From a virus: a DNA stretch of 38,866 nt. Location of the stretch: positions 1-38,866 of the IMG/VR virus record IMGVR_UViG_3300011158_000001, one strand, 5' to 3'. This document shows, in pieces, positions 1 to 38,866 of the stretch (positions are counted from its first letter, which is position 1; every line of letters starts with the position of its first letter). Made by a program: the position numbers and the translations under genes. The notes beneath the pieces were generated by a model. It was not told the origin of the DNA. It did not search any database and saw only the letters and a list, made by a program, of their open reading frames with translations.

Positions 1-99
1 AGGACGTTTTATCTTTAGCCTCTCCACCCTGGCCTACCAGGAGCTGCAACGGCAAACCGAGTACCGGCACGCGAGCAGCTCGCGTGTGGGGGCGCCGCC
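1..99. repeat. 99-nt terminal overlap, identical to 38768..38866 (circular assembly overlap or terminal redundancy)
   Basis: Base-by-base comparison of the first 99 nt with the last 99 nt shows identity. One ORF (gpU) reads through the junction in frame. Confidence 0.95.
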
Positions 100-427
100 G
101 GCGCGTCAGTTCGTGGGCAAGGGCGACGACAGCATAACCCTGCCCGGCTGGGTCGCGCCGGAGCTTACGGGTACCGCTGCCAGTTTGGACGTGCTGCGCT
201 ACATGGCTGAGTCCGGCTCGGCCTGGCCCATGATCGAAGGCACTGGCCGGATCCTGGGCGTGTGGGTGATCGAAAGCATCAGCGAGACCAGGACGATCTT
301 CTTTCGTGACGGCGCGGCTCGACGTATAGAATTCACCCTGTCGCTCAAGCGCATCGATAACGACCGCACCGATATCCTCGGTGCCGGCATCGCCTCGGCC
401 AATGGCATCCTGCGGAGCATCTTATGA
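1..427 (+). CDS. U: Tail protein gpU, 3' portion (ORF starts at 38754 and continues across the window ends)
   Basis: Translation ...RVGAPPARQFVGKGDDSITLPGWVAPELTG...IFFRDGAARRIEFTLSLKRID matches the remembered P2 gpU pattern. Position 86 is in frame with the ATG at 38754 once the 99-nt overlap is collapsed. Confidence 0.9.
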   Translation, partial: GRFIFSLSTLAYQELQRQTEYRHASSSRVGAPPARQFVGKGDDSITLPGWVAPELTGTAASLDVLRYMAESGSAWPMIEGTGRILGVWVIESISETRTIFFRDGAARRIEFTLSLKRIDNDRTDILGAGIASANGILRSIL

Positions 428-1695
428 TCCGCGAGGCCATCGACCAGGCCACTGGCCAACTGCGCAAGCTGTACGACCAAGAGGTCAACGGTGCCAGCTA
501 TCCAGTCGCTATCTACAAGCTCACCGTCGACGGGACGGACATCAGCAACCTGATAGCGCCGCGGCTGATCAGTCTGGACCTGACCGATAACCGAGGCCTG
601 GAAGCGGATCAGCTCAGCATTGTGCTGAGCGACCAAGATGGCCTGCTCGCTATTCCACAGCGCGGAGCCAAGGTGCGTCTCTGGCTGGGCTGGAATACCA
701 CCGGGCTGGTCGACAAGGGCACGTATATCGTCGATGAGACAGAGCACAGCGGCGCGCCGGACGTGCTGAGCATTCGTGCCCGCAGTGCGGACCTGAGAAA
801 GACGCTCAAGGCTAAGCGAGACGCCGGCTACACCAACACCACCCTGGGTACGATTCTGCGCACCATCGCCACCCGGCAAGGCCTCACGCCGGTCATTGCC
901 AAGGAGCTGGACACGCTTCAGGTGCTACAGCTGGACCAGACCGGCGAATCCGACGCCAACCTACTCACCCGCCTGGGCGAGGATCATGATGCGGTGGCCA
1001 CCATCAAGGCCGGTCGGCTGATCTTCATCCAGCAGGGCAAGGGCAAGACAGCCAGCGGCGCGGATCTGGGCCATATCACCCTCACCCGTGAGGACGGCGA
1101 CCAGCACAGCTACCTGCAGGCGGATCGGGAGAGCTACGAAGGCGTCCGCGCGTATTACTACGATGTAAACAGCGCGAAGAAGCAGCACGCCATTGCCGGT
1201 GGCGGCGATAACCTCAAGGATCTGCGACACACCTACAGCGATCAGGCCAGTGCCCTGCGTGCCGCACGCGCTGAATGGAATCGCCTGCAACGCGGGACCG
1301 CCATCCTCACCTACCAGCTGGCCCTGGGCCGGCCGGATTTGATTCCCGAACTTAGCTACACGCTCATAGGCGTCAAGGCCGAGATCGACGCGATCATCTG
1401 GCATGGCGGCAACGTCCAGCACAGCCTCACCGCAGACGGTGGCTACACCACGCGGCTGGATTTGGAAGCCAAGCTACCCGAAGACTTGGTTTCGGATCTA
1501 TTCGAGGAAGTCCAGGGCGACTATACCGGCGTGATTGCATACTACCGTGACAAGGCGACCGGCAAGGAGATAGCGGCGACGGCAGGCGATCAGACCAAGC
1601 CTAAGCGGTTGCATTACCTGTATGCCAATAAGCACACGGCAAAGCACGCCGTAGAGCGGGAGTGGCGTAAAGTAAATGAATATAAAGCAGATTAA
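424..1695 (+). CDS. D: Tail/late control protein gpD
   Basis: 423 aa, ATGA overlap with gpU. Position after U and sequence character fit the P2 gpD family. Confidence 0.95.
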   Translation: MIREAIDQATGQLRKLYDQEVNGASYPVAIYKLTVDGTDISNLIAPRLISLDLTDNRGLEADQLSIVLSDQDGLLAIPQRGAKVRLWLGWNTTGLVDKGTYIVDETEHSGAPDVLSIRARSADLRKTLKAKRDAGYTNTTLGTILRTIATRQGLTPVIAKELDTLQVLQLDQTGESDANLLTRLGEDHDAVATIKAGRLIFIQQGKGKTASGADLGHITLTREDGDQHSYLQADRESYEGVRAYYYDVNSAKKQHAIAGGGDNLKDLRHTYSDQASALRAARAEWNRLQRGTAILTYQLALGRPDLIPELSYTLIGVKAEIDAIIWHGGNVQHSLTADGGYTTRLDLEAKLPEDLVSDLFEEVQGDYTGVIAYYRDKATGKEIAATAGDQTKPKRLHYLYANKHTAKHAVEREWRKVNEYKAD

Positions 1696-2059
1696 GGATA
1701 CTAACGTGCAGCTCGTAATTCAGTTTCCTAAGAACTTGGTAACGGAGCTACTTATCCAGCAAAAGGACATCCCTTGCTTCTGCAAAATAGCGAAGGACTT
1801 TGAGCTGGATTTTACCGAGTCGATACCTCAGGTCTCAGGAAAAGTCATCCACTGGGATAGAAGAGAGCTGGAGCTGCGTGCGGAGCCTGGAGCAGGAGGA
1901 GAGTACACCCATTACCGTAATGGGCTGGTATCTCTACAAGAGACGGAGCAAAAAGATGTTTATAACATCATAGATCTGAAGCTTTTTTACTACCACTTAG
2001 GGTGGTGCTCAGTTATCACTAATGGTGAATATAGCGCCTACGTACCTGAAGACTTCTAA
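1676..2059 (+). CDS. Hypothetical protein in an AT-rich cassette after gpD (moron)
   Basis: 127-aa ORF. GC drops abruptly relative to gpD. No motif I recognise. The start overlaps the gpD end, and an alternative GTG lies at about 1706. Confidence 0.5.
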   Translation: MNIKQIKDTNVQLVIQFPKNLVTELLIQQKDIPCFCKIAKDFELDFTESIPQVSGKVIHWDRRELELRAEPGAGGEYTHYRNGLVSLQETEQKDVYNIIDLKLFYYHLGWCSVITNGEYSAYVPEDF

Positions 2060-2221
2060 TGTCTCAATGCTCTCAGTTAATAGAGCGAAGTCTTGGCGTC
2101 AAACAGCATTCGCCGCATGGGTGTCCATGCGTCTCGGCTCATATCCTGGGCTAGCAGAACTCACGTCTTTCCCTAATGCCTTCAAGCAGGCTTCTGCTAA
2201 TGGCCGCTTTCGTCTCATTAA

Positions 2222-2308
2222 TACTACCCCTATGCCAACAAGCAGACTGAGAAGCGCGCCGTAGAGCGGGAGTGGAAAAGGATACAGAAAGCAAAGGCGA
2301 CGGGATAG
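2222..2308 (+). pseudogene. Vestigial second copy of the gpD C-terminus
   Basis: Reads YYPYANKQTEKRAVEREWKRIQKAKATG*, preceded by a stop codon. About 50 nt (2227..2277) align to 1617..1667 (..YLYANKHTAKHAVEREW..) at roughly 80% identity. Confidence 0.6.
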
Positions 2309-2531: not shown

Positions 2532-2891
2532 TTACTTTTTTGCAGCTCCTGACAGGCTTCGTAGCACGTTGCGAGCTGTCTCCCTCTCCGCTTCAGGAAG
2601 ATTCCGAATATAGCCCAGCATCTCCGAGTCATAAGGAGATAAAACCAGCCCAGCTTGTTCGATGTGCTGCCCAGTCAATACATAGATTACGTCTATACCT
2701 GCCTCAGCGATGGCTGAAAGATATCCCGTATCCGGATGACCATTATTTTTCTCGTATTTGATTTGGGTAACTTTCCCAACGCCACCAATTGCTGCCAGTT
2801 GAGGCTGAGTCAGACCTAAACGTACTCGCTCTTCCTTAAGTCGCAAACCGTCAAAGGACAAAAAATTAAACCTCTTTATTGACACGTTCAT
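2532..2891 (-). CDS. CI-like immunity repressor (XRE-family HTH)
   Basis: LRLKEERVRLGLTQPQLAAIGGVGKVTQIKYEKN is a classic HTH_3 segment. The gene is divergent from a small HTH gene, as in lysogeny switches. Confidence 0.8.
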   Translation of the reverse strand: MNVSIKRFNFLSFDGLRLKEERVRLGLTQPQLAAIGGVGKVTQIKYEKNNGHPDTGYLSAIAEAGIDVIYVLTGQHIEQAGLVLSPYDSEMLGYIRNLPEAERETARNVLRSLSGAAKK

Positions 2892-2944: not shown

Positions 2945-3157
2945 ATGCCGAACGCAGACATCCCCGAGCAAGCACGGAATCAGGCTAAAAACAGGCTTAA
3001 ACGGCTCGGAATTACTGCCAAGGACTTCGCAAAAGCGAACAAGCTGAGCCCTAGTACGGTGTATGCCGTACTGAATGGGCAAAAGAAGTGTGTGCGGGGA
3101 GAGTCTCACCGCGCCGCTGTACTGCTCGGTCTCAAAAACGGCGTGGTTCTAAGTTAA
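2945..3157 (+). CDS. Small Cro/Ner-like HTH DNA-binding protein
   Basis: 70 aa. ITAKDFAKANKLSPSTVYAVLNG...RGESHRAAVLLGLK resembles Ner/Nlp-type HTH proteins. It is the first gene of the rightward early operon. Confidence 0.6.
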   Translation: MPNADIPEQARNQAKNRLKRLGITAKDFAKANKLSPSTVYAVLNGQKKCVRGESHRAAVLLGLKNGVVLS

Positions 3158-3186: not shown

Positions 3187-3666
3187 ATGAAAAAGAGCGT
3201 TCTAGAGACTCGCCGTCAGGTGGCCAGCGCCGTGATCTGTGACTATCCAGGCGGCCGCGAATGTGCAGCCGCTCGATTGGGCATGCCGCTCAAGAAGTTT
3301 GACAACCACCTGTATGAGAACGCGGGCAGCCGTCCTCTGACTGACGACCAGATCGTCCAGCTGGAAAAGGATGCGGGTACCACGCATTTGCCGGACTACA
3401 TCGCGGCCCAATACGGCGGTGTGTTCGTGAAGCTCGACGAGGCGGGCAACCTGGACAACATCGATCTGTACACCTTTGCCGTGAACACCTCGACCAAGCG
3501 CGGGCTGGTCGACCAGATCATTGCCAAGGCTTTAGAAGACGGCGTCGTGGATGAAAGCGAGATAGCTCAGATCCTGGCGGCACATCGTCAACACATGAGC
3601 GCGCGCTGCACTGAGGTGTACTCGGTTATTGCGTTGCACTCGAAACCGTCAGGCTCAAGGCACTGA
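3187..3666 (+). CDS. CII-like regulatory protein (Phage_CP76/YdaT-like)
   Basis: Start moved to ATG 3187 (MKKSVLE), which has an upstream purine-rich stretch. AARLGMPLKKFDNHLYENAGSRPLTDDQIVQLEKD recalls the 186 CII architecture. Assigned from memory only. Confidence 0.5.
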   Translation: MKKSVLETRRQVASAVICDYPGGRECAAARLGMPLKKFDNHLYENAGSRPLTDDQIVQLEKDAGTTHLPDYIAAQYGGVFVKLDEAGNLDNIDLYTFAVNTSTKRGLVDQIIAKALEDGVVDESEIAQILAAHRQHMSARCTEVYSVIALHSKPSGSRH

Positions 3667-3799
3667 CCGCCTAGCCAGTACAAACGCAAGGCCCTGCAGT
3701 ATCAAAGGTAACGAGAATGAAGTACGTACCTGAAGAATTAGGCCTCAACGCCACCGCTTCCGAGGATAGGGGAGCTGCAAAACCATGGGAGCAATGGCA

Positions 3800-4081
3800 A
3801 TGAAATGCCCGAGCTGCCGTGAAAAGCTCCGTATGCGCACCACAGAAGAGGAGGCACCATGCTTCAAGAATGTATGGTACGAGTGCACCAATTTCGACTG
3901 TGGGGCGACCTTCAAGGGTCATCAGACCATCGTTCACCAGATCCGGCCATCTGCGCTGGAGCAGCCTTATCACGTGGTGCCCATGGCTCCGACCGTGACC
4001 GGGAAGCTCAAGCCCAAGATCCCGCAGGGCTCCACCAAGCCAGCCTCGCTGGATAAATCTGGTTCGGAGCAGCGTCCATGA
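3800..4081 (+). CDS. ogr: Ogr/Delta-type zinc-finger late transcription activator
   Basis: MKCPSCREKLRMRTTEEE..YECTNFDCGATF gives the CxxC...CxxxxC spacing typical of P2 Ogr. Confidence 0.8.
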   Translation: MKCPSCREKLRMRTTEEEAPCFKNVWYECTNFDCGATFKGHQTIVHQIRPSALEQPYHVVPMAPTVTGKLKPKIPQGSTKPASLDKSGSEQRP

Positions 4082-4440
4082 ACATTCAGCCCCCTGAACA
4101 CTACCTGGACAGCATGCAGGCCGCTGCCCTCTCCTTCCTAATTCGTCACCAAGCCGAACACCTGAGCAATACGGATCAGCTGATCGAGCGCGCCGTGACC
4201 CACCTCAACGAGCGGTTGCAGGTGCCAGAACACACGGCCAAGCGCCTGGTCGAGCGTGCCTATTCCGAACTCAAGCCCGAGCCTGAGCATCGCTACCTGG
4301 ACGTAGACAGCAGCACCGGCCTGGTCGCCGTGCTTGTGGATCCGGAGTCTGGCCGGCGTTATCGAATACCCATAGCGGAAGTCTTCGCGGCGTGTATCGA
4401 CGATCCGGATCTGCCGCCTAAACCAAGCTCAACTCACTAA
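4078..4440 (+). CDS. Hypothetical protein
   Basis: 120-aa ORF with backbone GC, ATGA-coupled to ogr. No recognisable motif. Confidence 0.5.
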   Translation: MNIQPPEHYLDSMQAAALSFLIRHQAEHLSNTDQLIERAVTHLNERLQVPEHTAKRLVERAYSELKPEPEHRYLDVDSSTGLVAVLVDPESGRRYRIPIAEVFAACIDDPDLPPKPSSTH

Positions 4441-4500
4441 TACCAGCCCAAAATTCTCAATGGGTTTGGGGAAGCTTTGCCCGCTGTACAAGGAAACGTT

Positions 4501-5379
4501 ATGCAAACCGCTCAAAACACCGCTGCAAAGGTCCTGCAGCGTACAAGCAGAAAGCGTCGTGCCCCGGCTGATTCGCCGGCCTCTGCGCTCTATGCAGCGG
4601 TGTCTGTTCGCGGCAAGCCTTCCCTTCCAGACATGGCCAAAAGCAACCTGGCCAAGTTATCTGAAAAGCAGTGCAAGACGTTCCTGGGTGAAGCGGCAAA
4701 GCGTATCAAGGCCGAAGCCAATACGCGCGCCGGTAAATGGCTGCGCAACCTCGATCGGCTGCATAAGTCCGGCCGTCGAACTCGGCAGGAAAGCTGGGAC
4801 AAGCTCGCGGCGATTATTGAGCCCATGCTGGCCAGACTGGATATGGCCACAATGGTGCTTGGCTGGCTGGATAATGAGGGCCAGTTTCGTCTCAATCTTC
4901 AAAACCGTATCGCGGTAGATTCAAACCTCAAGCAATGTGCGCTATCTAGGCTACTGAAGCTACTCAGCGAGGCACGATATATCCGCCGCGTACACAAACG
5001 CCTCTATCAAGACGGCAAGCGTTGGATCACCCGTACCATGATTGTGCTTCGGCCACGCTTCTTCATCGAGCTAGGCCTGGCCCATCAGCTGGCCCAGGCA
5101 CGCACACGAAAGAAAGAGAAACGCCGCGCAAAGCTCGCTGAGATCGCACGACGTCAAAACCAGCAAGCACTCCAAGAGCTAGCTGATAATCAAGCAAGAG
5201 TCGCACGTAAGCGCAGCTTTCAGGCACGTGAGCGCATCACAGCAGAGCGCGCACTAGATGAGCAGCAGCAACAGACACGCCGTAACCAAGCTGCAGATCT
5301 AGCAGAGTTCGCCAAGCAACATAAGCACCTAGAATACTCAGACGTAATCAGGCTCTGGAAGAGTTTGAACCAAGCTTAA
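4501..5379 (+). CDS. Putative replication initiator, IncFII RepA-like
   Basis: ATG 4501 is preceded by aggaa. The central region LARLDMATMVLGWLDNEGQF..IAVDSNL..SRLLKLLSEARYIRRV...WITRTMIVLRPRFFIELGL and the basic coiled C-terminus parallel the remembered R1/R100 RepA layout. Confidence 0.45.
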   Translation: MQTAQNTAAKVLQRTSRKRRAPADSPASALYAAVSVRGKPSLPDMAKSNLAKLSEKQCKTFLGEAAKRIKAEANTRAGKWLRNLDRLHKSGRRTRQESWDKLAAIIEPMLARLDMATMVLGWLDNEGQFRLNLQNRIAVDSNLKQCALSRLLKLLSEARYIRRVHKRLYQDGKRWITRTMIVLRPRFFIELGLAHQLAQARTRKKEKRRAKLAEIARRQNQQALQELADNQARVARKRSFQARERITAERALDEQQQQTRRNQAADLAEFAKQHKHLEYSDVIRLWKSLNQA

Positions 5380-6230
5380 TCCCTCTCAACAAATTCAAAC
5401 CGTCTCAGGCGGTGCCTCTACTCGTCTACACCCTGCCCTCCCCTGCTTTTTCAGCTCATAGCCAGCTCAGGTGAACCCAAAACTGAGTCCAAGCCGTTGG
5501 CCAAGCGTATTCCAGAAATACGGTTAATGCTGTAATGCTGGTATTACTAGTGATAACTGCAAATTTAGGTGTGCTGTGGTACCAGCTACGCTTATAAAAC
5601 AGAGCCTTTGGATCGTGCCGGTATCAACTCCGTACAGACCTGATGCATTTGTATTGATGCTTCCCCGACTTCGCGCCTACAGGCGCGCGGGGTCCCCTAG
5701 GTTCCCACTGGAACAACAGAGCTGCTTGAGTGTTCTCGCGCCCTTCCAGTCATTGCACGCCGCACAACCATCAAGGTTTCCCTAACAGTTCTGAGCGGCG
5801 GCGTTTCACTCCTTCACGGCGCTGCCTTTCGGCTTCGTCTCGCAAGCGAGCCGGGGCAAACAATAAGGGGGCGGTCGAGGTCTTTCGCAGCGGGTTTTCA
5901 GAGCCTTTAAGAGCAGGCAAAGCGTCACATGAGAAGCAGATCCGTAGGCGCGCGATGGGGGCCGCAGAAAAGGGGGACCTCTGCAGGGTTTTGCAGGGTT
6001 TTCCTAACGGTGAAAATGCCGCGCAGGCCCCGTAGTGGGCCGCTCAGAGGCCAGCGCAGGGGTGCAGAAAAAGCGACCTATTTAGCCCCCAGGCGTCGTG
6101 GGGGGACGATTGCGCGCGCCGGGTGCTGGAGCTTGGTGATTTTCCTCGCGCGTGCTTTTGGGGACGTTCTATCTAGACGTCGCCAGCGCGTAGCGAGCAC
6201 AGATAGTGAAGCGGAGCTCCTACATGCGAT
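5380..6230. other. ORF-poor, GC-rich repeat-bearing region (candidate ori and/or cos)
   Basis: Only overlapping Arg/Ser/Pro-rich ORFs in three frames. Hairpin ccccg..cgcgcc-taca-ggcgcg-cgggg at about 5662..5695. Tandem tgcagggtttt x2 at about 5981..6003. Repeated gcgc..gggg..gcagaaaa at about 5950 and about 6055. Three GGGGAC motifs. Confidence 0.5.
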
Positions 6231-6310
6231 ACATGTATGAAATACATTCAAAGTAATTACGATATACATATTTCATACGTATAAAATATGTATTGCATAT
6301 GTATTTGGTA
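6230..6310. repeat. AT-rich centromere/operator-like repeats upstream of parA
   Basis: tatgaaatacat (6236..6247), acatatttcatacgtat (6266..6282) and catatgtatt x2 (6285..6308). The same motif family occurs at 7352..7458. Confidence 0.5.
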
Positions 6311-6358
6311 TTGATATCATCCGTACCGCATACATAACCAGATGCCACGGGAGGCGTC

Positions 6359-7027
6359 ATGATCGTTCTCATCGGCAATACGAAAGGCGGTACCGGCAAG
6401 AGCACCACTTCCGTTCAGCTCGCAGTCGCACGAGCTAACCAAGGCAAGAATGTTTGGCTGGTCGATGGAGATCCGCAGAACAGTTCCGGCCAGGCTATTA
6501 CGCTTCGTTTGATGGATGGAGTAAAACCAGCCGTCGCTGCATCCCATTACCCGAAAGGCGATGACTTCTACGTCCAGGTTGAGCATCAATCCAAACTTTA
6601 TGATGACGTAATCCTGGACTGTGGTGGTTTCGATAGCGAGTCGTTGCGTTCCGCCTTGGCCTTGGCCGATGTACTAGTGGTCCCGTTCCAACCTCGCGCC
6701 TTCGACACTTGGGCACTTAGCAAAATGGCTTCTCTTATAGATGAAGCACAACGCGCACGTTCGCGAGCCAAGATTCAACCCCTCCGTGTGCATGCCATGC
6801 TTTCTATGGCTGATCCTGGTGTGAATGCCTCTGACAACCTTGAAGCTGAAAGGGTACTCGAGCATTACCCGCAACTTCCTTTCTTGGATGCATCGCTCGG
6901 CGATCGAAAGGCATTTGCTGTTGCATCAAGCCGCGGGCTTAGCGTCGATGAACTTGAGCGTAAGGATCAGAAAGCCAGCTTCGAGCTCAAGCGCCTGGTG
7001 CGTCATATCTTTGGAGATGTTGAATGA
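6359..7027 (+). CDS. parA: ParA partition ATPase (small, type Ib)
   Basis: Deviant Walker A motif GNTKGGTGKST at the N-terminus. 222 aa with no N-terminal HTH. Confidence 0.9.
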   Translation: MIVLIGNTKGGTGKSTTSVQLAVARANQGKNVWLVDGDPQNSSGQAITLRLMDGVKPAVAASHYPKGDDFYVQVEHQSKLYDDVILDCGGFDSESLRSALALADVLVVPFQPRAFDTWALSKMASLIDEAQRARSRAKIQPLRVHAMLSMADPGVNASDNLEAERVLEHYPQLPFLDASLGDRKAFAVASSRGLSVDELERKDQKASFELKRLVRHIFGDVE

Positions 7028-7314
7028 AAAAGAAGGTATCGATGCTTCCCCCTGGAATGGCTCCAGCTGCACCAACCGAGCAGCCAGATAACCAAGCCAT
7101 AAAGCAGTTCATCCAGGGTGCTCCCGATAGCGGTAAACCAGCCGAAACTGAGGTGCCTAAAAAGAAGAAGAAAAGGGAGCCGGTAACGATGCTTTATCCA
7201 TCCGATCTGCTTGAGCGTGTAGATGAATTTGTTCGAAATGACGAGGTTTTGAACACCAGGACAGCTTTCGTTATGCAAGCTATTCGGAATGAACTCAAGC
7301 GGCTACAGGAGTGA
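7024..7314 (+). CDS. ParG-like ribbon-helix-helix centromere-binding protein
   Basis: 96 aa, ATGA-coupled to parA. Disordered basic N-terminus, with a C-terminal VTMLYPSDLLERVDEFVR..RTAFVMQAIRNEL that fits an RHH fold. Confidence 0.65.
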   Translation: MKKKVSMLPPGMAPAAPTEQPDNQAIKQFIQGAPDSGKPAETEVPKKKKKREPVTMLYPSDLLERVDEFVRNDEVLNTRTAFVMQAIRNELKRLQE

Positions 7315-7351
7315 GCCGCTTGTTTCAACGCTCAGTCTATATGCTACTGCA

Positions 7352-7458
7352 CATATGAAATACGTATAATATACGTATTTCATGAATATAAAATACATAT
7401 TTATTGAGTATGTCATAGGTAAATCATACGTATAACGTAAGTATTTCATATGTATTTG
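7352..7458. repeat. AT-rich centromere-like repeats downstream of the par operon, including a 29-bp palindrome
   Basis: atgaaatacgtata-a-tatacgtatttcat at 7355..7383 (14-bp perfect arms). Further copies tcatacgtataacg (7424..7437) and gtatttcatatgtatttg (7441..7458). Confidence 0.55.
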
Positions 7459-7465
7459 CTTTTCG

Positions 7466-7869
7466 TGCTACAAATTCCGGACTTTTCCGGGATAGGGGCC
7501 GATGACTTAGAAATGGGCTAGAAAGCCTTTCCTGATCAACGCTTTTCAGCAGATCTGTTAGTTAATAGCGGGTCTCATGCTACAAATGCCGGACTTTCCG
7601 ATTTTCATAGCGACTAGGGGAGGGGGGTAGCTTACCCGGTGCTACAAATTCTGGACTTTTGCTCTTAAAAAAGACTTAAAAAATCAGTGTTCTTGATCTG
7701 TTTTTTTATCTTGTTTTTTAACTTGTTTATAGAGATCGCTGCAGGCCTTTAGCCATGCGGCTTCCAGCGAAGCGCGTGCTACAAATTCCGGACTTTGCGC
7801 TACAAATTCCGAACTCTCTGCTACAAAAAACGGATGTTATCCACATTCGAGCTACAAATTCCGGACATG
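7466..7869. repeat. Iteron array / oriV
   Basis: TGCTACAAATTCCGGACTTT-like 20-mers start at 7466, 7578, 7640, 7777, 7798, 7819 and 7850. The last four are in tandem at 21-31 bp spacing. An A+T-rich tract with GATC sites lies at 7661..7735. The array sits immediately upstream of a Rep_3 gene. Confidence 0.85.
7837..7845 (+). promoter_or_regulatory. DnaA box
   Basis: Perfect TTATCCACA between iterons 6 and 7. Confidence 0.5.
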
Positions 7870-7928
7870 TAGCAGATAGGCTTTTGATTGGATACACTCG
7901 GCCTTTCATTCCCGGCATGTGACTCATT

Positions 7929-8660
7929 ATGACGGACCTGATGATCGACGAGGCCGACCACTGGGTAGTAAAGGGCAACGCTCTGTTAGAGGCGGCATAC
8001 AAGATGACGCTCCAGGAGAAGCGCTTGCTTTTGCTGGCCATCTCCAAAATCGACTCTCGTAAGCCAATCCCTGAGCCGATTCGTATCTATGCGCATGAGT
8101 TTGCCCAGGCATACAACCTGCCGGGAAAATGGGCCTATGAGGCTATCAAGGAAGCAACAGAAAGCCTGTACCACTGCACGATCAAGATCCCAGAAGTAGC
8201 AAACAGCCCCGAGGACGAATACCGCTGGATTTGGCGTAAGAGCACGACCAAATATGATGGCTTCGTTGAGCTGTACTTCACGCCAGTGGTTGCACCCTAC
8301 CTATCTGAACTGACAGGCGATTTCACGCGCTACAAGCTGATGCGTGTGGCTAACCTAACCTCAGTCCATAGCGTGCGGCTATTCGAGATGTTCATGCGCT
8401 ATGAGGTCGAGGGTTTCGGCTACTGGATCGTCAAGCTGGACGATTTCCGCGAGCGCCTTGGCCTGGGCAAAGCGTACGAGCGTATGAGCAATCTACGGAC
8501 GCGCGTGCTGGATCCGGTAAAGAACGAGCTACCCGAGAAGGCCAATATGGTGATGGACTATGAAATCATCAAAAAGGGCAGGGTACCCGACCGGTTGAAG
8601 TTTACGTTTTACTCAACGACAGACGCTGAAGCGCTGCCCATATCATCCGATCGAGGATAG
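7929..8660 (+). CDS. Iteron-binding replication initiator (Rep_3 family)
   Basis: VVKGNALLEAAYKMTLQEKRLLLLAISKID is the Rep_3 N-terminal signature. 243 aa, with iterons directly upstream. Confidence 0.9.
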   Translation: MTDLMIDEADHWVVKGNALLEAAYKMTLQEKRLLLLAISKIDSRKPIPEPIRIYAHEFAQAYNLPGKWAYEAIKEATESLYHCTIKIPEVANSPEDEYRWIWRKSTTKYDGFVELYFTPVVAPYLSELTGDFTRYKLMRVANLTSVHSVRLFEMFMRYEVEGFGYWIVKLDDFRERLGLGKAYERMSNLRTRVLDPVKNELPEKANMVMDYEIIKKGRVPDRLKFTFYSTTDAEALPISSDRG

Positions 8661-8668
8661 AAGAGACC

Positions 8669-8935
8669 ATGCTAATAGTTCGCTTAAAAAACGGTGTTAC
8701 CTTAAATTTTGAGCGATCTATCGGCAATGCAGGAAAGCATGGTATCTGGGAGTTTCACCGTGCGGCTAACTCTTACATGCGGCCGCCGAACTACACGCCT
8801 TTCCGGCATGCCGCGATACTTCCATCAGACCCCAGTCCTAACCAGACTGTAAGCGTAGCAATCTGTGCTCCGGGGATGCCTGAGTCAGACTGGATTCCCG
8901 TAGGCGAGGGGACCGCTACGCATGAGGAATGGTAG
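8669..8935 (+). CDS. Hypothetical protein
   Basis: 88-aa ORF 9 nt after rep. No motif recognised. Confidence 0.4.
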   Translation: MLIVRLKNGVTLNFERSIGNAGKHGIWEFHRAANSYMRPPNYTPFRHAAILPSDPSPNQTVSVAICAPGMPESDWIPVGEGTATHEEW

Positions 8936-9039
8936 CGGCGTTCTTCGCATAACATCCATTGTGTTAAATGACCGCTATCGGCCATAAGCGGACCGTCAGA
9001 ATCATCAAAAAACCTAGATCAGCGTATGGCAAACTGTCG

Positions 9040-9356
9040 TAATTCTCTCGCCAGCCCCTAAGGCGAGGCCTCCAGTCGCTTTGTTTGGCGACAAGGTAAG
9101 CGCAGTTTACCGCGTCAAAACCCTTACCAGCGCTCGGCGATAGCGCCTGAAGGATGTCCCGGAGAATATGCTGGAGGCGTTGACCGCGATTCAGTGCCGT
9201 GATATCTAATTACCATCGGGTTTGGGGCACAATTTAACTTTCCACTGACTATATGCGGTGGCCACTGCAAGGGTAGCTTTGCCTGATCGCGCTATACGGT
9301 TACGTTACTGATGGCGACGGTAAAAGAGAAAATAGCCCCAAAGCCCGGTACTACGA
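9040..9356 (+). ncRNA. Candidate retron msr-msd template region (boundaries not resolved)
   Basis: ORF-free DNA directly upstream of a retron-type RT. Inverted repeats gcctccag/ctggaggc (9068..9075 / 9171..9178) enclose three small hairpins. Imperfect 16-18 nt repeat taccatcgggtttggggc / gccccaaagcccggta (9211..9228 / 9335..9350). No long msd-like hairpin or clear branching G could be identified by eye. Confidence 0.3.
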
Positions 9357-11153
9357 ATGGATATCGACGAGGATTTCAAGGATTTATTTGGCCCGGGTTT
9401 CAAGAGCCTCGATGGGTTCTGCCAGCTATTAGAAGTTGATAGAGACAAACTACTCAACTTCCTTTACAACAGGAAAGGCAGCCATTACGTTAGCTTTCTC
9501 ATCTTAAAGAAAAACAAAACCCATCGCTGCATTAAAGCACCCATACGGGTAATGAAGAAAATTCAGCATGCGCTTTTGCCGCATCTCGAAAAATTCTATT
9601 CCCCCAAGCCTTCCAGTCATGGCTTCGTCAAGGGAAGGAACGTCAAGACAAATGCTCAAATCCATTCCGGAAAGAGATATGTGTTCAACATTGATCTGAA
9701 GGATTTTTTCGAAAGCATCCATTTTGGGCGAGTCAGAAATTTATTCATGGCCCCCCCATTTAGTGCACCCTACAATGTTGCGACTGTTATGGCGCATATT
9801 TGTTGCAGCGACGGAAAATTAGCTCAAGGCTCCCCAACCTCACCGCTAATATCGAACATGATTTGCCGGAAGCTAGACTCACAAATTCAGGCCCTAGCAA
9901 AATCAAGTAAATGTCATTTTACACGGTACGCTGACGACATTACGTTTTCCTTTACCTGTACTGAAAAATACTTACCGAAAGATATTGTCGAAGTCTCCGA
10001 GGACGGCAGAGCGATACCTGGGTGCGTACTGGAGGAGATCATCAAATCCAATGGTTTCATCATAAACTCCGAAAAAACGCGTCTTCAGCACCGGACGCAG
10101 CGCCAGATGGTAACGGGCCTGGTCGTCAATGAGATGCCAAACGTAACCAGAGAATTCATCCGTTTAACGAGTTCGATGATCAACGCTCTTAAACGCTACG
10201 GGCCTGAGCTGGCAGAAGCCAAGTATTTGGAAATTCTGAAGAGCGAGAATCAGCCGCTTCAGCCTCGACAAACTCTGCGGGCGAAGGGGAATTCTGGCGA
10301 TTTTTTTATCAAGGTGGTCAAAGGGCGACTGAATTATATTCAAATGATTCGCGGTCGAGGTGACAAGATCTATCGTCGCTTGGCATATGAATTCACAGTA
10401 GCTATAGGCAAAGAGAATCTTGAGTTCAAAAAATCACCTGAAGAGATCTTAGGAAACTCAATTTTTGTCGTTAACAACATCATTGAGGAATCTCAGGGGA
10501 CGGCCTTCCTTCTGGATGGGGTCGGCATCGTTACCAATGAACACGTTGTGACGGGGGTATCTAAAACGATCGCTCGTCACTCCATTTCATTCAAGCGTGC
10601 CGGCGATACGAGAGAGTACTCAGCAGAGCTTATCCTTTCGGACAAAAAAGCAGACTTGGCTATTTTTCATCCCAATGAAGAGTTCCGAAACATACCCGCC
10701 CTGCGCAAGTCCGACAAAACGATTATTCGCCCCACGGATCCAGTTCTATCGATCGGTTTCCCTAAGCATCGAGACGGTACCGCGCACTACATCGCAAAAG
10801 GCCATACTACTCAGCGACGCCGCCAGGTCGACCTAGATCTGTGGTTGGTTGATTTCACGCTGATGGAGGGAAATAGTGGTGGTCCTATGTTCAACGACTC
10901 CATGGAAGTGATCGGTATCACAGCTAGAGGAGCAAGAAATAATATCGATGCAGCGCTTTACGGCTTTATACCACTAGAAAGCTTGAACAGTTTTATAAAC
11001 AGAGCGGACTTTCTACTTCTGAAAAGGTTGTACGACTATCTAGGCAACGGATCACTAAGCCTCCTCCCTAGAGTTCTTGGCAAGGGGCTTTTTAGCAGTA
11101 CCTACCAAATAAAGCTCCATAAGGAACGCCTTCAGCAAGCTAAGGCAGTTTAA
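9357..11153 (+). CDS. Retron-type reverse transcriptase fused to a C-terminal trypsin-like (S1) serine protease
   Basis: RT motifs NAQIH (NAxxH, 9651..9665), YADD (9927..9938) and VTG (10110..10118). Protease triad contexts TNEHVV, DLAIF and GNSGGPMF (Ser codon 10875..10877). 598 aa, with lower GC than the backbone. Confidence 0.9.
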   Translation: MDIDEDFKDLFGPGFKSLDGFCQLLEVDRDKLLNFLYNRKGSHYVSFLILKKNKTHRCIKAPIRVMKKIQHALLPHLEKFYSPKPSSHGFVKGRNVKTNAQIHSGKRYVFNIDLKDFFESIHFGRVRNLFMAPPFSAPYNVATVMAHICCSDGKLAQGSPTSPLISNMICRKLDSQIQALAKSSKCHFTRYADDITFSFTCTEKYLPKDIVEVSEDGRAIPGCVLEEIIKSNGFIINSEKTRLQHRTQRQMVTGLVVNEMPNVTREFIRLTSSMINALKRYGPELAEAKYLEILKSENQPLQPRQTLRAKGNSGDFFIKVVKGRLNYIQMIRGRGDKIYRRLAYEFTVAIGKENLEFKKSPEEILGNSIFVVNNIIEESQGTAFLLDGVGIVTNEHVVTGVSKTIARHSISFKRAGDTREYSAELILSDKKADLAIFHPNEEFRNIPALRKSDKTIIRPTDPVLSIGFPKHRDGTAHYIAKGHTTQRRRQVDLDLWLVDFTLMEGNSGGPMFNDSMEVIGITARGARNNIDAALYGFIPLESLNSFINRADFLLLKRLYDYLGNGSLSLLPRVLGKGLFSSTYQIKLHKERLQQAKAV

Positions 11154-11501
11154 TGAATGATCAAAGTACAATGGCTAGTTTGCCTCGCCCCAAGCGACTT
11201 AACATCCATTCTTCTGTTTGGCACACAATCACACATAAGTCACAATACTCCTGCGTCGAGAGCTGCCCGGGTACGCCATGAGAATCATGGGTAAGATGAG
11301 TCGAGTCGGGACGCATCAGCGCGACCTTGTACCTGACAGCCATCGACATGCATGGTGTGAGCTACTCGCTTCGTTGATGCCTGCAAACTATAGTCGTCTT
11401 ATAAACGCGGCAGAAGAGTCCGCCTTTGGTCGATAGCTGTCATTTAATGTGGGTAGTTACTGGGTCGCTACAGGACGCCTACGCACAACACCCAATATAT
11501 A

Positions 11502-11523
11502 AAAGCCTCGATCAGAGGGCTTT
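11502..11523. terminator. Candidate bidirectional terminator hairpin
   Basis: aagcctc-gatca-gagggctt (one bulge), with T-rich runs on both strands. Lies just 3' of the recombinase gene. Confidence 0.4.
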
Positions 11524-11529
11524 CTGCTT

Positions 11530-12180: not shown

Positions 12181-12190
12181 TTATGGCCTC

Positions 12191-12322
12191 AGGTGTAGTC
12201 GTTAGGTGTAGCGAATTATAGGTGTAGTCGTATAAGTCCTTTTACCTATTTATCGCTACACCTGAAAGGCCTGTTTTGGGTGTAGTCGCTGGGGTATACC
12301 TTACTGACTACAAAAATAGTCG
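12191..12322. repeat. Array of GGTGTAGTCG-type 10-mers (candidate res/operator sites)
   Basis: aggtgtagtcg 12191..12201, aggtgtagcg 12204..12213, aggtgtagtcg 12220..12230, inverted cgctacacct 12254..12263, gggtgtagtcg 12278..12288, gactac..tagtcg 12306..12322. All lie between the recombinase start and the next gene. Confidence 0.6.
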
Positions 12323-12341
12323 TAATTTTAAGGAGATTTTG

Positions 12342-12917: not shown

Positions 12918-13055
12918 CAAACGAGCTGTTTAGAATTTACTCTAGACGAATATGGTATTTTGTAAGGTCTGTTAGTTCTAGTTATCTAAATCTGGATCGC
13001 TCGTCTTTCGAGAGTCAGTCCCGGCAGTGGCAGTTCTGCTTTTGATCATGAATGG

Positions 13056-13487: not shown

Positions 13488-13509
13488 CGTAAAGCAAGCA
13501 GGTAGCCTA

Positions 13510-30710: not shown

Positions 30711-31292
30711 GTGTCCAAGTTGTACAGTCCTTCTGATGCTGCCTTTTTCGATAGCAGCGTTCACAGCGTCATTCCCAAGGATGCCATCCAGATCAGCGAT
30801 GCGCTCTATGAAACCCTACTCAAGGGCCGCTCCGTTGGGCAGGTCATTGTCCTGGACAGCCGTAGGATGCCTACGCTGTCCGATCCGGCTCCGGCGTCAA
30901 TGGATGAGGTGAAAGCGGCAAAGCTCAACGAGCTGGAGACCGCTTGCGTAACTCAAATCACTGCCGGCTTCTCTTCAAGCGCCCTGGGTGAGACTTACAC
31001 TTACCCGGCCAAGCCGACCGACCAGTCCAACCTGCAGGCCTCGGTACTGGCCTCGATCCTGCCCGGCGTCGATGAGACGTGGACCACCCCGTTCTGGTGT
31101 GCAGACACGCAGGGCAAATGGGCCTATCAAGCGCATACCGCCGCGCAGATTCAGCAGGTCGGTGTGGACGGCAAGAACGCGATCAATGCGGCCATTGCGC
31201 AAAAGATCGAGCTGGAACAGCAGGTGGAAGCAGCCAAGACCGCAGCCGAAGTGGCCGCTATCGTCTGGCCTCAAGATGAGGTAGCGGCATGA
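30711..31292 (+). CDS. Tail fibre accessory/assembly protein (DUF4376-like rather than classical gpG)
   Basis: Lies immediately after H. The central ..KAAKLNELETACVTQITAGF..YTYPAKPTDQSNL.. resembles DUF4376-type fibre-associated proteins (from memory). Confidence 0.5.
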   Translation: MSKLYSPSDAAFFDSSVHSVIPKDAIQISDALYETLLKGRSVGQVIVLDSRRMPTLSDPAPASMDEVKAAKLNELETACVTQITAGFSSSALGETYTYPAKPTDQSNLQASVLASILPGVDETWTTPFWCADTQGKWAYQAHTAAQIQQVGVDGKNAINAAIAQKIELEQQVEAAKTAAEVAAIVWPQDEVAA

Positions 31293-31729
31293 TCCAGTTG
31301 GCCCTCTACAAGGCACCCGGTGATCTTTACGACCGGCTGATCCGAATCTGGACGCGCAGCCCCTACTCGCACTGCGAACTGATCCTGGAGGATGGCCGCT
31401 TTGCCAGCAGCTCACCGCGTGACGGTGGTGTGCGGGCCAAACTGATCGAGCCAGATCCGGCGGTTTGGGACTTCCTGCCGCTGCCCTGGGTAAGGGAAGA
31501 GATGGTCGAGGAGCTGCTGCAGGCCGAACACGGCTCAGGCTATGACTGGATCGGGATCCTGGGCAGCCAAATCTTGCCGGTCGGCATCCAGAGCCAGTCG
31601 CGCTGGTTTTGCTCGGAGTTCTGCGCTCAGGCGATTGGGCTGGAACAGCCGCAGCGGTATTCGCCAGGAAGCCTATTCGAAACTATGTCCTGGGCACTCA
31701 AATTAGACTTTAATAGTGTAGGTAGCTAA
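31289..31729 (+). CDS. Hypothetical protein, possible permuted NlpC/P60-LRAT-like His...Cys signature
   Basis: ATGA-coupled to the previous gene, with backbone GC. YSHCELI ... WFCSEFCA weakly recalls the H...NCEHF arrangement. Confidence 0.4.
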   Translation: MIQLALYKAPGDLYDRLIRIWTRSPYSHCELILEDGRFASSSPRDGGVRAKLIEPDPAVWDFLPLPWVREEMVEELLQAEHGSGYDWIGILGSQILPVGIQSQSRWFCSEFCAQAIGLEQPQRYSPGSLFETMSWALKLDFNSVGS

Positions 31730-31738
31730 CGATTAGGG

Positions 31739-31945
31739 ATGCAGGTTGATATGCCGGGTCAGGAAAAACACGGTCAGACCAAGCAAGCGTTCTGGCTTGG
31801 GTGTGTAGCTCTAGGAGCCGCATCACTTCCACTCTGGTACATAATCGCGATGCAGGACAGCCAACACGAATACAAAGATATCGGGGTGTATTGCTCCATG
31901 ATCCCGTTTGTTCTGGTCACGCTGTTTAGCGTGGTCCGACGTTGA
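31739..31945 (+). CDS. Small 2-TM membrane protein
   Basis: 68 aa. Hydrophobic segments FWLGCVALGAASLPLWYIIA and VYCSMIPFVLVTLFSVV. Confidence 0.4.
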   Translation: MQVDMPGQEKHGQTKQAFWLGCVALGAASLPLWYIIAMQDSQHEYKDIGVYCSMIPFVLVTLFSVVRR

Positions 31946-32187
31946 AAGTTTTAGGTGTTTTGCCTGCTAAACGGCTGATAGGTTTCGGTAGTGCATAGCA
32001 TTCATCCAGTCATCTGGCTGAACACTTCCGCTGGGCAGTTACCAGAGAAAATTGCTAGATAGGTCACATTTCACTTTTGTATCCTGCTCGCCTCGGCATT
32101 AACGGAATAAAGCCTGTGCGAGCCCTTCCTCACAAAATCAAAACCTTTCAAAAAGAGTTCAGCCTTTTGCCAGGCTATGCTTTTTCT

Positions 32188-33087
32188 ATGCGCATATTCT
32201 GGCTGGTTGCACTGCTTGCCGCGCTGATTATTGGTTCATTGATCTTTAATGCGATCAACACCATTGTTTTCAAATCCCATACCTATTCTCATCTGCCCTA
32301 TATCTCGTTGGGCTTTGAGTTTTTTGTTCTGATACCTAGTTTTTTGCAGGTCATATGCGAGATCGACCAGCAACGCTGCCGGCGGTTATATCCGCAGGTG
32401 AGGCCAACTGGCTTTCGTGCTGCGGTGACAATGATCAACCGAGCAAAATACGAGCGAATCGAAGCTCTGTTCGGCCCTCAGGAAAGCTTGGAGAAACTGG
32501 CTAAAGGCCTGATTGAAGAATGGAAGTGGCGACGCGAAATCCAGCTTAATGCTGGAGAAACAGACGTCCAAAAGGCCCGAAAATTCTTCCGCTTGCCGTC
32601 AGGTAGCAACCTTGCCACTTACCTCGCCGGGGTCTTGGCTATCGTGGCCGGTATTGTGGTGGCACTGATAGATAAGGATAGCTTCTATCAAGAGCTTCCC
32701 AATTTATGGGGTAGCTTTGAATTTTGGTACATCGCTCTCTTTAAATTAATCGTCATGCCTATAGCGATTTGTATCATCCCGCTCGCAGTTATCTGGAGCA
32801 GCATAAAAGCGATAGGCCGGATTCTCGCTGAGAGCATGGATGATGATTTTCTCAGCCAACCTAAATTCTACTCGTTCATCAAAGAGCTCCTGGAACTGGC
32901 TGATCGCAAAGAACGAAGGCTACTGCTTAAAACAACAGGCCGAGCCTATTGGTCGATTCGCCTTCTGACTGCTCCAATTCATAAAGTCCCTAGAATTTAC
33001 AGAAATGTCCATCGCTCGAAGCGGCTGGCCAAGCTGAGAAAGGCAGGTTTGAAAAATCAGTTTATCAAAACCCAGGTGAGGCATTAA
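32188..33087 (+). CDS. 4-TM membrane protein (accessory cassette at the Z/fun position)
   Basis: Start reset from TTG 32077 to ATG 32188 (MRIFWLVALL..). There are four hydrophobic segments, a soluble loop of about 90 aa and a basic C-terminus. AT-rich. Confidence 0.6.
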   Translation: MRIFWLVALLAALIIGSLIFNAINTIVFKSHTYSHLPYISLGFEFFVLIPSFLQVICEIDQQRCRRLYPQVRPTGFRAAVTMINRAKYERIEALFGPQESLEKLAKGLIEEWKWRREIQLNAGETDVQKARKFFRLPSGSNLATYLAGVLAIVAGIVVALIDKDSFYQELPNLWGSFEFWYIALFKLIVMPIAICIIPLAVIWSSIKAIGRILAESMDDDFLSQPKFYSFIKELLELADRKERRLLLKTTGRAYWSIRLLTAPIHKVPRIYRNVHRSKRLAKLRKAGLKNQFIKTQVRH

Positions 33088-33090
33088 TGC

Positions 33091-33618
33091 ATGGATCAGC
33101 CAAGTATAGTGATACAAAGTTTGCCAGCCATAACAGGTCTTATTGGTGCATGTGTTGGCTTCGCAGGCTCTTTTCTTAATACGTTGTACAACCAAAAACA
33201 GACCCATAAACAGAGTCATAATCAACGCAAACGAGAAAGAATCGAGTCGCTATACAGGCTTATAGAAGTTACAAGATATGAAATACAAAGGGATCAAAAA
33301 AATACAATGCTTGCCGCGAATGGACACCATAGCGAGATAGAGCACTCGGCTACAATAGAGGGGAAGCTTCCAGCCTTCATAGAGATTGAGATGTTGATCG
33401 ATCTCTACCTCCCGATCCTTAAAGAAGGATATCAAAACTTCGACAAGGCTCGATCTGAATTTAAAGCCATTTGTTCTCGGCTAGCAGATGAGCCAATGCA
33501 AAGCAAAAGCGCTGAAGAGCAACTAGCAGACGTTAATGAGTTGCGGTGGTACTTTGAAAATGTACAAGGCGAGCTTTATAAACTTCAGGCGATGCTGCCT
33601 GAGTTGATCGAGTCTTAA
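33091..33618 (+). CDS. Single-TM helical protein, operonic with the 4-TM protein
   Basis: Starts 4 nt after the previous stop. N-terminal TM segment LPAITGLIGACVGFAGSFL, followed by charged helical sequence. Confidence 0.6.
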   Translation: MDQPSIVIQSLPAITGLIGACVGFAGSFLNTLYNQKQTHKQSHNQRKRERIESLYRLIEVTRYEIQRDQKNTMLAANGHHSEIEHSATIEGKLPAFIEIEMLIDLYLPILKEGYQNFDKARSEFKAICSRLADEPMQSKSAEEQLADVNELRWYFENVQGELYKLQAMLPELIES

Positions 33619-38747: not shown

Positions 38748-38753
38748 TCCACC

Positions 38754-38866
38754 ATGATGATGGCCCTAGGACGTTTTATCTTTAGCCTCTCCACCCTGGC
38801 CTACCAGGAGCTGCAACGGCAAACCGAGTACCGGCACGCGAGCAGCTCGCGTGTGGGGGCGCCGCC
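38754..38866 (+). CDS. U: Tail protein gpU, 5' portion (continues at position 1)
   Basis: MMMALGRFIFSLSTLAYQELQRQTEYRHASSSRVG.. parallels the P2 gpU N-terminus (MMLALGMFVF...). Confidence 0.9.
   Translation, partial: MMMALGRFIFSLSTLAYQELQRQTEYRHASSSRVGAP

Follow-up and report, generated by a model that had tools for sequence, protein, structure and literature searches.

How can a phage of the P2 type persist in its host when its genome carries no integrase? The question is raised by a 38,866-nt stretch of viral DNA with 54.8% G+C (the record in IMG/VR: IMGVR_UViG_3300011158_000001), the whole of which was analysed here and is called the window. From its gene content we consider it likely that this is a complete temperate Pseudomonas phage of the P2 family (Peduoviridae), the prophage of which would be a circular low-copy plasmid. 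A first-pass annotation of the same DNA had described a P2-like genome built to persist as a plasmid, and all in silico tests support that description; the extrachromosomal state itself, the activity of each module and the driver of lytic replication are what we infer from the sequence. The plasmid reading is supported by an intact iteron replicon, a partition locus, a resolvase gene with a res-like site and the absence of integrase and protelomerase, and furthermore by a repressor/Cro/CII switch, a cos site and the contigs of the relatives, which are never above element size. A phage gene set together with replication and partition genes, and no integration machinery, is also what characterises a phage-plasmid sensu Pfeifer et al. 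(2021), and the window has this combination.

Predicted plasmid functions in a complete P2-type genome

The phage part of the window is the following.

16937–38747, Q and P on the minus strand: P2-type virion and lysis module in the order Q, P, O, N, M, L, X, holin, muramidase, spanin, R, S, V, W, J, I, H, G-like, FI, FII, E/E', T
424–1695, plus strand: gpD (tail/late control D), 69% amino acid identity to D of phage phiCTX

Matches to Pfam and PHROG families were obtained for Q, P, O, N, M, L, X, the holin, the muramidase and the Rz-like spanin, as well as for R, S, V, W, J, I, H, the G-like protein, FI, FII, E, T, U and D, all of them in P2 order. Both gene sets by which Peduoviridae are recognised are present, namely the capsid, terminase and portal set (Q, P, O, N, M and L, with Pfam E values from 1e-16 to 1e-130) and the contractile tail and baseplate set (R, S, V, W, J, I, H, FI, FII, E, T, U and D), and every essential P2 gene for morphogenesis, packaging and lysis is a full-length open reading frame (ORF) in the window. 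The capsid, terminase and portal proteins share 48–81% amino acid identity with those of phiCTX (P 81%, Q 75%; the tail protein FII reaches 76%), and the order of closeness is phiCTX, then Burkholderia phage KS14, then P2. Searches for near-identical DNA in phage and plasmid collections gave no close relative, the best match being 76% to the phiCTX terminase. The first-pass annotation had reported the complete P2 structural, lysis and late-control set in canonical order; this is true of the virion and lysis genes, but ogr does not lie beside D and is found in the early operon (3800–4081), as in phiCTX. Moreover, none of the following gave a tblastn match to the window at E ≤ 1: the Int, C, Cox, B and A proteins of P2, the integrase and the primase of phiCTX, and the primase of KS14. 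This agrees with the earlier statement that P2 int, cox, A and B are absent.

The functions expected of a plasmid are encoded between 6237 and 12312.

6237–6320, no strand: centromere-like array 1 and parA promoter region, with ATGAAATACRTAT-like repeats in 11-bp phasing
6359–7027, plus strand: ParA, a partition ATPase of the small Walker type (222 aa), 47% identical to KS14 gp40
7024–7314, plus strand: small 96-aa protein, the putative centromere-binding partner; its N-terminus is disordered and its C-terminus is like that of ribbon-helix-helix (RHH) proteins
7351–7460, no strand: centromere-like array 2, with the same motif (ATGAAATACRTAT) and 11-bp phasing
7467–7866, plus strand: iteron origin with six direct iterons, an AT-rich stretch (7660–7730) and a perfect DnaA box (7837–7845)
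7929–8660, plus strand: Rep_3 initiator with the domains WH1 and WH2 (PF01051, 4e-32; PF21205, 3e-17)
11530–12180, minus strand: small serine recombinase of 216 aa, with the catalytic motif YLRASTDDQ and a C-terminal helix-turn-helix (HTH)
12191–12312, no strand: res-like array of GGTGTAGTCG/CGACTACACC, including a 32-bp imperfect palindrome (TGTAGTCGCTGGGGTATACCTTACTGACTACA) at 12281–12312

Six direct iterons with the sequence GCTACAAATTCCGGAC are found upstream of rep, where 0.19 would be expected by chance, and the box TTATCCACA is the only perfect DnaA box in the window. Iterons, DnaA box and AT-rich region thus stand together beside rep in the manner of an iteron replicon, and the same set is present in the related contig L125. 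The Rep_3 protein, in which both winged-helix domains are recognised, has its nearest relatives among replication initiators of Pseudomonas plasmids (45–48% identity) and is 30% identical to KS14 gp37. As to partition, 13 of the 14 matches to the ATGAAATACRTAT-like motif in the window fall within the two arrays (0.8 expected). The C-terminus of the 96-aa partner follows the strand-helix-helix pattern of RHH proteins, with which a single-sequence model agrees (predicted local distance difference test score, pLDDT, 73–84), and an RHH fold is therefore what we infer for it; a sequence search of the PDB found nothing for this protein.

The serine recombinase contains the resolvase domain (PF00239, 4e-22) and HTH_38, with the active-site serine and the C-terminal HTH both in place. 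Its closest solved structure is the plasmid resolvase Sin, matched over the full length, and a 61% identical relative lies on a conjugative-plasmid-like contig. Directly upstream of the recombinase gene there are five copies of GGTGTAGTCG and the 32-bp dyad, a layout which recurs with changed bases in a P. oryzihabitans contig (L103), again ahead of a recombinase gene (69% identity). Since this array looks like a res site, it supports the view that the recombinase would act in multimer resolution at a predicted res. The first-pass annotation had named an iteron oriV with a DnaA box, a Rep_3 initiator, parA with a small RHH par gene and a small resolvase-type recombinase plausibly serving multimer resolution, and all four are recovered at the positions given above, the par partner with an RHH-like C-terminus.

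The same annotation had seen neither an integrase nor a protelomerase and had asked for a profile search of the ORFs, which bears it out: the small serine recombinase of resolvase type is the sole recombinase. A hidden Markov model built from five diverse tyrosine recombinases found nothing among the 540 stop-to-stop ORFs in six frames of the circle (best E value 2.8). In addition, the window has no unassigned ORF above 340 aa and no telRL-like or long palindrome, and a protelomerase system is excluded on these grounds.

The unit length and the mode of packaging follow from three further features.

1–99 (= 38768–38866), no strand: terminal overlap, produced in the assembly of a molecule that is circular or concatemeric
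38754–38866, plus strand: 5' part of gpU, with the remainder at 100–427 of the window, 146 aa in total
6091–6111, plus strand: cos core AGGCGTCGTGGGGGGACGATT, homologous to the phiCTX cohesive end and flanked by conserved packaging sequence (about 5554 to 6135)

Positions 1–99 and 38768–38866 are 100% identical, which gives a unit of 38,767 bp. A 26.9-kb contig from another assembly (L002; the accession number in NCBI: DALYPB010000049.1) is 100% identical to the window and runs unbroken from position 36696 through the junction to 13221; because it reads through without extra sequence, the DNA is continuous at the junction. Once the ends are joined, gpU is a single 146-aa ORF from 38754 across the junction to 427, and the same 146-aa gene is called in L002. 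Closure of the element at about 38.77 kb by the 99-nt identity, and the position of gpU across the junction, had both been proposed in the first-pass annotation and are hereby corroborated.

The cos core differs from the phiCTX cohesive end (AGGCGTGGCGGGGGGACGACT) at 3 of 21 positions and lies in the same context, with the surroundings CCTATTTAG...GCGCGCGCC, within a 1-kb non-coding stretch 3' of the gene called p292 here. It is kept in every relative. Judged by this homology, the phage is a cos packager with predicted cohesive ends of about 21 nt. The first-pass annotation would have been refuted by a 99-nt repeat that was a true direct terminal repeat; this is not the case, since the presence of a phiCTX-homologous cos at 6091–6111 makes the repeat an assembly overlap and not a terminal redundancy. 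The cos site does not adjoin Q but lies 10.8 kb from it, and the interval between them (6112–16936) consists of the plasmid backbone and two cargo regions. A literature search found no support for packaging of P2 from monomeric circles, and this is not relied on here.

Upstream of cos lies an early operon with a divergent repressor gene.

2532–2891, minus strand: CI-type XRE repressor, divergent from the early operon
2945–3157, plus strand: Cro/Ner-like small HTH protein of the BcepMu gp16 family (2e-23), first gene of the early operon
3187–3666, plus strand: CII-like activator of the CP76 family, 61% identical to phiCTX orf33
3800–4081, plus strand: Ogr/Delta zinc-finger late activator, 46% identical to phiCTX orf34 (PF04606 on the identical gene of L002)
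4078–4440: protein without assigned function, in the early operon between ogr and p292
4501–5379, plus strand: p292, a winged-helix domain and a long coiled-coil, at the end of the early operon and invariably linked to ogr and cos

By tblastn, Ogr matches P2 Ogr (8e-6) and phiCTX orf34 (5e-19). Taken together, these modules suggest the following life cycle. After injection the virion DNA would circularise through its cohesive ends of about 21 nt (cos, 6091–6111), and the CI-like repressor, countered by the products of the Cro and CII genes, would silence the early operon including ogr and p292. Rep_3 on the six iterons, together with host DnaA at the adjacent box, would open the AT-rich stretch for theta replication, with the iterons beside the rep promoter setting the copy number. 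ParA and the small RHH-like protein may then segregate the copies by means of the two repeat arrays flanking their operon, and the serine recombinase may resolve multimers at the array of sites upstream of its own gene. Upon induction, Ogr would activate the P2-type late operons and terminase would cut cos.

Relatives and alternatives to a plasmid prophage

The relatives of the element bear directly on its state in the cell. The exact Rep protein occurs on 18 contigs, all of them at most 36.2 kb long, and contigs above 30 kb with a recombinase at least 66% identical measure 37.1–41.7 kb. The longest contigs with homologues of p292 and of the recombinase (at least 66%) are of 36.2, 36.8, 37.1, 38.0, 38.0, 38.6, 38.8, 39.5, 41.0 and 41.7 kb, and no join between the element and host DNA was seen among the relatives' contigs. 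A contig of 37,951 nt from a Pseudomonas luteola isolate has the same gene order, iterons, DnaA box and cos, with 94–96% nucleotide identity in the backbone. The family also includes a contig of Pseudomonas sp. WAC2, three IMG/VR genomes of 36.8–39.3 kb and a P. asuensis contig, the last being the single locus found when genome contigs were scanned with Rep. In both isolates, P. luteola (the accession number in NCBI: GCA_044903105.1) and WAC2 (GCA_030403525.1), the element forms a contig of its own. In the WAC2 relative (L001, 6520–6620) there is a clean deletion of 4.3 kb joining position 201 of the window to 4494, from inside U to just before p292, with the loss of the last part of U, the whole of D, the repressor gene, cro, cII, ogr and the next gene; the other virion genes are kept. 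This deletion derivative is still a 36.2-kb contig of its own with the plasmid module intact.

Several points weigh against a plasmid prophage. The source of the window and of its twin contigs is a metagenome or a metagenome-assembled genome, and replicating or cos-joined phage DNA can give circular contigs as well; moreover, the argument from contig size is weakened by the many related contigs that are short pieces from metagenomes. A phiCTX-like phage with integrase and primase has been deposited as a circular 36.7-kb P. aeruginosa plasmid (L124, pPHPALO552; the accession number in GenBank: CP075758.1), and a circular record alone consequently proves little about a plasmid lifestyle. There is no recognisable lytic replication gene in the window, so that the lytic-cycle part of the model is incomplete. 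Furthermore, small resolvase-type serine recombinases can act as integrases in the Ralstonia phiRSM phages, according to work cited in PMC4471427. The last point favours an integrating prophage, inserted by the small serine recombinase, by host Xer or by some other recombinase, in which the plasmid genes would be transient or cargo; the recombinase is, indeed, the one DNA-rearranging enzyme conserved in all relatives, and phage P88 has par and rep genes and was yet found integrated (PMC7969092). We nevertheless regard integration as unlikely, for the contigs of the relatives never join host DNA and their lengths stop at element size, the recombinase gene is preceded by a resolvase-like array of several subsites, the enzyme is closest among solved structures to the plasmid resolvase Sin and has a 61% relative on a conjugative-plasmid-like contig, and the iteron replicon and the two-array partition locus are kept at 94–96% identity across hosts.

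The deletion in WAC2, which takes part of U, D, the immunity genes and ogr, and the want of a recognisable lytic replication gene would both suit a plasmid with a defective set of P2-like genes, or with a tailocin-like remnant, from which infectious virions no longer arise. This is improbable for the window, where the ORFs for morphogenesis, packaging and lysis are all full-length and where cos, ogr and each gene of the repressor/Cro/CII switch are undamaged; the backbone, moreover, is conserved between P. luteola and metagenomes. The metagenomic origin of a circular contig would also be compatible with a virulent or pseudolysogenic phage, the circle being replicating DNA and the 99-nt repeat a real terminal redundancy, and we hold this to be very unlikely: a conserved cos homologous to that of phiCTX is present, the repressor, CII, partition and resolution functions would be useless in a purely lytic cycle, and the element occurs in assemblies of cultured isolates. 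Lastly, the resemblance of the Rep and partition genes to Pseudomonas plasmid genes could reflect an assembly error that fused a P2-like prophage with a plasmid unrelated to it; this is hardly credible, as the gene order with the junctions p292-cos-parA and Dam-Q recurs in independent isolate and metagenome assemblies.

Known phage-plasmids and the origin of the lineage

If the prophage is a circular plasmid, as we favour, it can be compared with several known systems. The closest virion module is that of phiCTX (Citexvirus), with 46–81% amino acid identity, and the likeness extends to the CII-like orf33 (61%), the ogr-like orf34 (46%) and the cos core. phiCTX differs in that it integrates and possesses an integrase, attP and a primase, and is without Rep_3, ParA and resolvase; between cos and Q it has only ctx, whereas the window has 10.8 kb of plasmid and defence genes. 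Comparison of the two gene contents shows a lineage that would have arisen by a module swap, in which the integrase/attP/primase arm of a phiCTX-type phage was replaced by a Rep/Par/resolvase backbone like that of Pseudomonas plasmids.

The nearest precedent for the proposed lifestyle is KS14 (Kisquattuordecimvirus, Peduoviridae), the prophage of which was recovered by plasmid preparation as a circular plasmid (Lynch et al. 2010, PMC3091744) and which is counted among the phage-plasmids by Pfeifer et al. (PMC7969092). Like the window, KS14 has a P2-type virion module, no tyrosine integrase, a Rep_3/RepB-type initiator, ParA and a small serine recombinase. Its gp37 and gp40 are the homologues of Rep (30%) and ParA (47%), a small protein follows ParA in both, and the plasmid genes are beside the portal end of the genome in both. 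However, KS14 has a 923-aa P4-alpha-like primase (gp2) without a homologue in the window (tblastn, E ≤ 1), and its Gin-like recombinase (gp6) likewise shows no tblastn similarity to the window recombinase at this threshold. A large primase is present in phiCTX as well as in KS14 and missing from the window. Nucleotide identity to KS14 is 65–69% in patches only and there is no megablast match, which places the window outside the KS14 genus; the host and the small Par partner are different, and KS14 has no p292 and none of the retron or bSEFIR cargo. The first-pass annotation had considered a circular iteron-replicon version of a P2-tailed plasmid prophage to be a solution different from the linear, protelomerase-dependent one; as a claim to novelty this has to be given up, since a circular plasmid prophage was already known from KS14 in 2010. 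What the window would add is a Pseudomonas example of the arrangement known from KS14 in Burkholderia, namely a P2-type virion combined with a circular plasmid that replicates from iterons, and a literature search found no report of this Pseudomonas lineage. Such elements would be missed or mislabelled by prophage finders that rely on integrases and host flanks.

Linear phage-plasmids that depend on a protelomerase (N15; VP882, VHML and phiHAP-1) are, like the proposed state of the window, temperate, tailed and extrachromosomal, and those of Vibrio and Halomonas share one community with KS14 (PMC7969092). They have a protelomerase and a telRL palindrome, whereas the window is without both. The partition locus of the window resembles type Ib loci (pB171 par2 and TP228 ParFG) in its small ParA without an N-terminal HTH and its small, putatively RHH-type partner, although type Ib partner proteins in the PDB have no sequence similarity to the partner in the window. 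In pB171 the repeat arrays parC1 and parC2 lie upstream and downstream of the par operon, in the same layout as in the window. Phage P1 also resembles the window in its iteron-type RepA replicon, ParA/ParB partition, dedicated multimer-resolution recombinase, and defence and addiction cargo. It differs in its unrelated virion, its size of 94 kb, headful packaging from pac, the tyrosine recombinase system Cre/lox, a separate lytic replicon (repL) and a ParA of type Ia.

p292, cos-bearing plasmids and variable cargo

P2 replication uses gpA, and lytic replication of the window, which has no such gene, would on the available evidence be driven by either Rep_3 or p292. The first-pass annotation had listed a second RepA-like gene, for which there are two ORFs to consider and neither qualifies: 9357–11153 is the reverse transcriptase (RT)-protease gene of a type XI retron (PADLOC, 9e-180), and 4501–5379, that is p292, has no Rep family match. 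Indeed p292 matched nothing in Pfam, NCBIfam, PHROGs or PADLOC, and a profile search of 1.8 billion representatives yielded a family of 162 proteins whose Pfam matches are just generic winged HTH families. Its AlphaFold model (pLDDT 81) is a winged helix with an 80-residue helix, and the structural matches are weak, being to a MarR-type winged helix and to staphylococcal RepA_N structures (E about 0.05–0.2). Membership of p292 in a RepA-like family was therefore rejected, and a role in replication is suggested by position: p292 stands where phiCTX has its primase, and the cos region always follows. No iterons were found near p292 or its paralogue described below. We regard p292 as a candidate for a second (lytic?) initiator or for a cos-associated factor. 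With this family, which is a compact system, one could ask by what means a P2-type phage replicates lytically without gpA or a primase.

Another group of elements shares this part of the window. Pseudomonas contigs of 29–39 kb, and one metagenome contig of 55.9 kb (L117, L119–L123 and L102 between them), have only ogr, p292 and the cos region in common with it (3691–6133). In those of 29–39 kb the amino acid identity is 65–72% for Ogr and about 63% for p292, and the nucleotide identity in the cos region is 69–78%; the cos core has 1–3 changes relative to the window, and the homology ends just past cos. These cos plasmids have their own ParA, a 112-aa partner and, at the position of Rep_3 in the phage, a p292 paralogue (51% identical), and their cargo is either a type I restriction-modification (R-M) system with GmrSD and UvrD-NERD, or CdiA/CdiB. 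In one 29-kb element of this kind, of which 21 kb were covered, there is no virion gene. Strain WAC2, besides its deleted relative of the phage, also carries a CdiAB plasmid with ogr-p291-cos, and the 55.9-kb metagenome contig has the same ogr-p292-cos module beside a type I-F CRISPR-Cas locus. The P. oryzihabitans contig mentioned above (L103, 40,960 nt) has a p292 homologue (56% amino acid identity), the 69% identical resolvase, HigBA and large non-P2-like genes, and may be a different type of phage-plasmid using the same accessory genes.

From their gene content the cos plasmids could be satellites packaged via cos, or decayed phage-plasmids. The satellite P4 can also live as a plasmid. Like P4, they combine an Ogr/Delta homologue and a helper-type cos, with no virion genes in the parts seen; they differ from it in their size (29–39 kb compared with 11 kb) and in having their own ParA locus, and no homologues of sid, psu, epsilon or alpha were found in them. 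We put forward only tentatively, and with more doubt than confidence, a helper-hitcher system in which the cos plasmids would be packaged at full size in phage capsids via cos, p292 would represent a new family of winged-helix initiators driving induced replication in both, and the phage would be a P2-family member without any phage-type replication gene.

Between rep and Q, and in smaller insertions among the virion genes, lie the cargo of the window and two genes that are kept in the relatives.

8964–8993, plus strand: left arm (30 nt) of the inverted repeat bounding the variable defence cassette
8994–11153, plus strand: type XI retron, with a candidate msr/msd (8994–9356) and the RT-protease gene (9357–11153)
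11418–11447, minus strand: right arm (30 nt) of the inverted repeat bounding the variable defence cassette
13056–13391, plus strand: HigA-family HTH protein, conserved in relatives
13767–16004, minus strand: variable cargo, with the bSEFIR defence protein (13767–15254), HicB (15284–15706) and HicA (15822–16004)
16112–16906, minus strand: Dam-type D12 adenine methyltransferase, conserved in relatives
1666–2275, plus strand: moron insertion (orf127 at 1676–2059), flanked by 51-nt direct repeats and missing from L014 and L125

The retron is recognised by the fusion of RT and protease domains (Pfam RVT_1 and Trypsin_2) in addition to the PADLOC match (RT-Protease_XI). The 363-nt region upstream of the RT gene folds with z = -2.6, and Rfam gave no match on the whole window or on 8900–9400, so that neither the retron RNA nor the inverted-repeat element belongs to a described family. 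The cassette, which lies between the recombinase gene and the small gene that follows rep, has other contents in five relatives, namely a DUF6602 protein, a PRTase-CE with an OLD-like TOPRIM protein, another RT, a four-gene set or a single protein of 267 aa, and in the relatives with these other cassettes (L001, L003, L004, L007, L009 and L010) inverted 30-nt copies bound the cassette exactly. In the window the 30-nt element occurs in these two copies only (0 expected by chance); the 21 nt on its outer side (TTAAATGACMGCTATCGGCCA) are conserved, and the 9 inner positions depend on the cassette. Its nature may be that of a recombination site or of a 3' hairpin, and covariation in its stem, inspected manually as well, is inconsistent. 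The element was compared with dif/pdif, attC, gix/hix, a sigma-54 promoter and a repetitive extragenic palindromic sequence, and none fits. The serine recombinase is unlikely to be an invertase of the cassette, as the GGTGTAGTCG motif is missing from the 30-nt arms. A BLAST search of plasmids with the 30-nt element gave chance-level matches only, and a literature search found no mention of it.

A 20-mer of the element (TAAATGACYGCTATCGGCCA) was also seen in unrelated metagenome contigs (L104–L114) of 40–63% G+C, mostly 3' of genes, and several of these copies continue with the same inner consensus. In L105/L112 and L113 the outer flank is common and divergence sets in directly after GGCCA, and in L106 the 20-mer lies 7 nt past a LAGLIDADG-type ORF, beside a group I intron match. 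A variant form occurs twice in a Massilia plasmid (L115, 13190–13223 and 22070–22100).

With such cargo, defence systems would move both as plasmids and in virions, here the type XI retron and bSEFIR, and in relatives R-M, KwaB, OLD-like and KAP NTPase systems. If the side findings hold, these elements would also be a system for studying hitchhiking of cos plasmids and swapping of defence cassettes at a fixed, repeat-bounded site. The moron is an insertion of 558 nt at the 3' end of the gpD gene, and orf127 is without a family match; the direct repeats (1615–1665 and 2225–2275) are 84% identical, the second encoding an alternative C-terminus of gpD. Two further insertions occupy classical cargo positions of P2 phages: a PycTM-like membrane protein without a cyclase in the gap between S and V (26311–26853, minus strand), and four ORFs of 146, 68, 336 and 175 aa without an informative family in the gap between G and FI (31289–33618, plus strand). 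There is no HigB gene beside the HigA-family gene in the window, while HigB adjoins it in L103 and L125. The bSEFIR and hicAB region is replaced in relatives by an Eco57I-like R-M system with KwaB or by a KAP NTPase. The hicAB genes, taken in the first-pass annotation as a plausible addiction module, are present, with a strong match for HicA and a weak one for HicB; as they are part of a variable cargo region, a role as built-in addiction module is not supported. Directly upstream of hicA there is a 26-nt near-perfect hairpin or palindrome (16029–16086), which is probably the operator of the hicAB operon.

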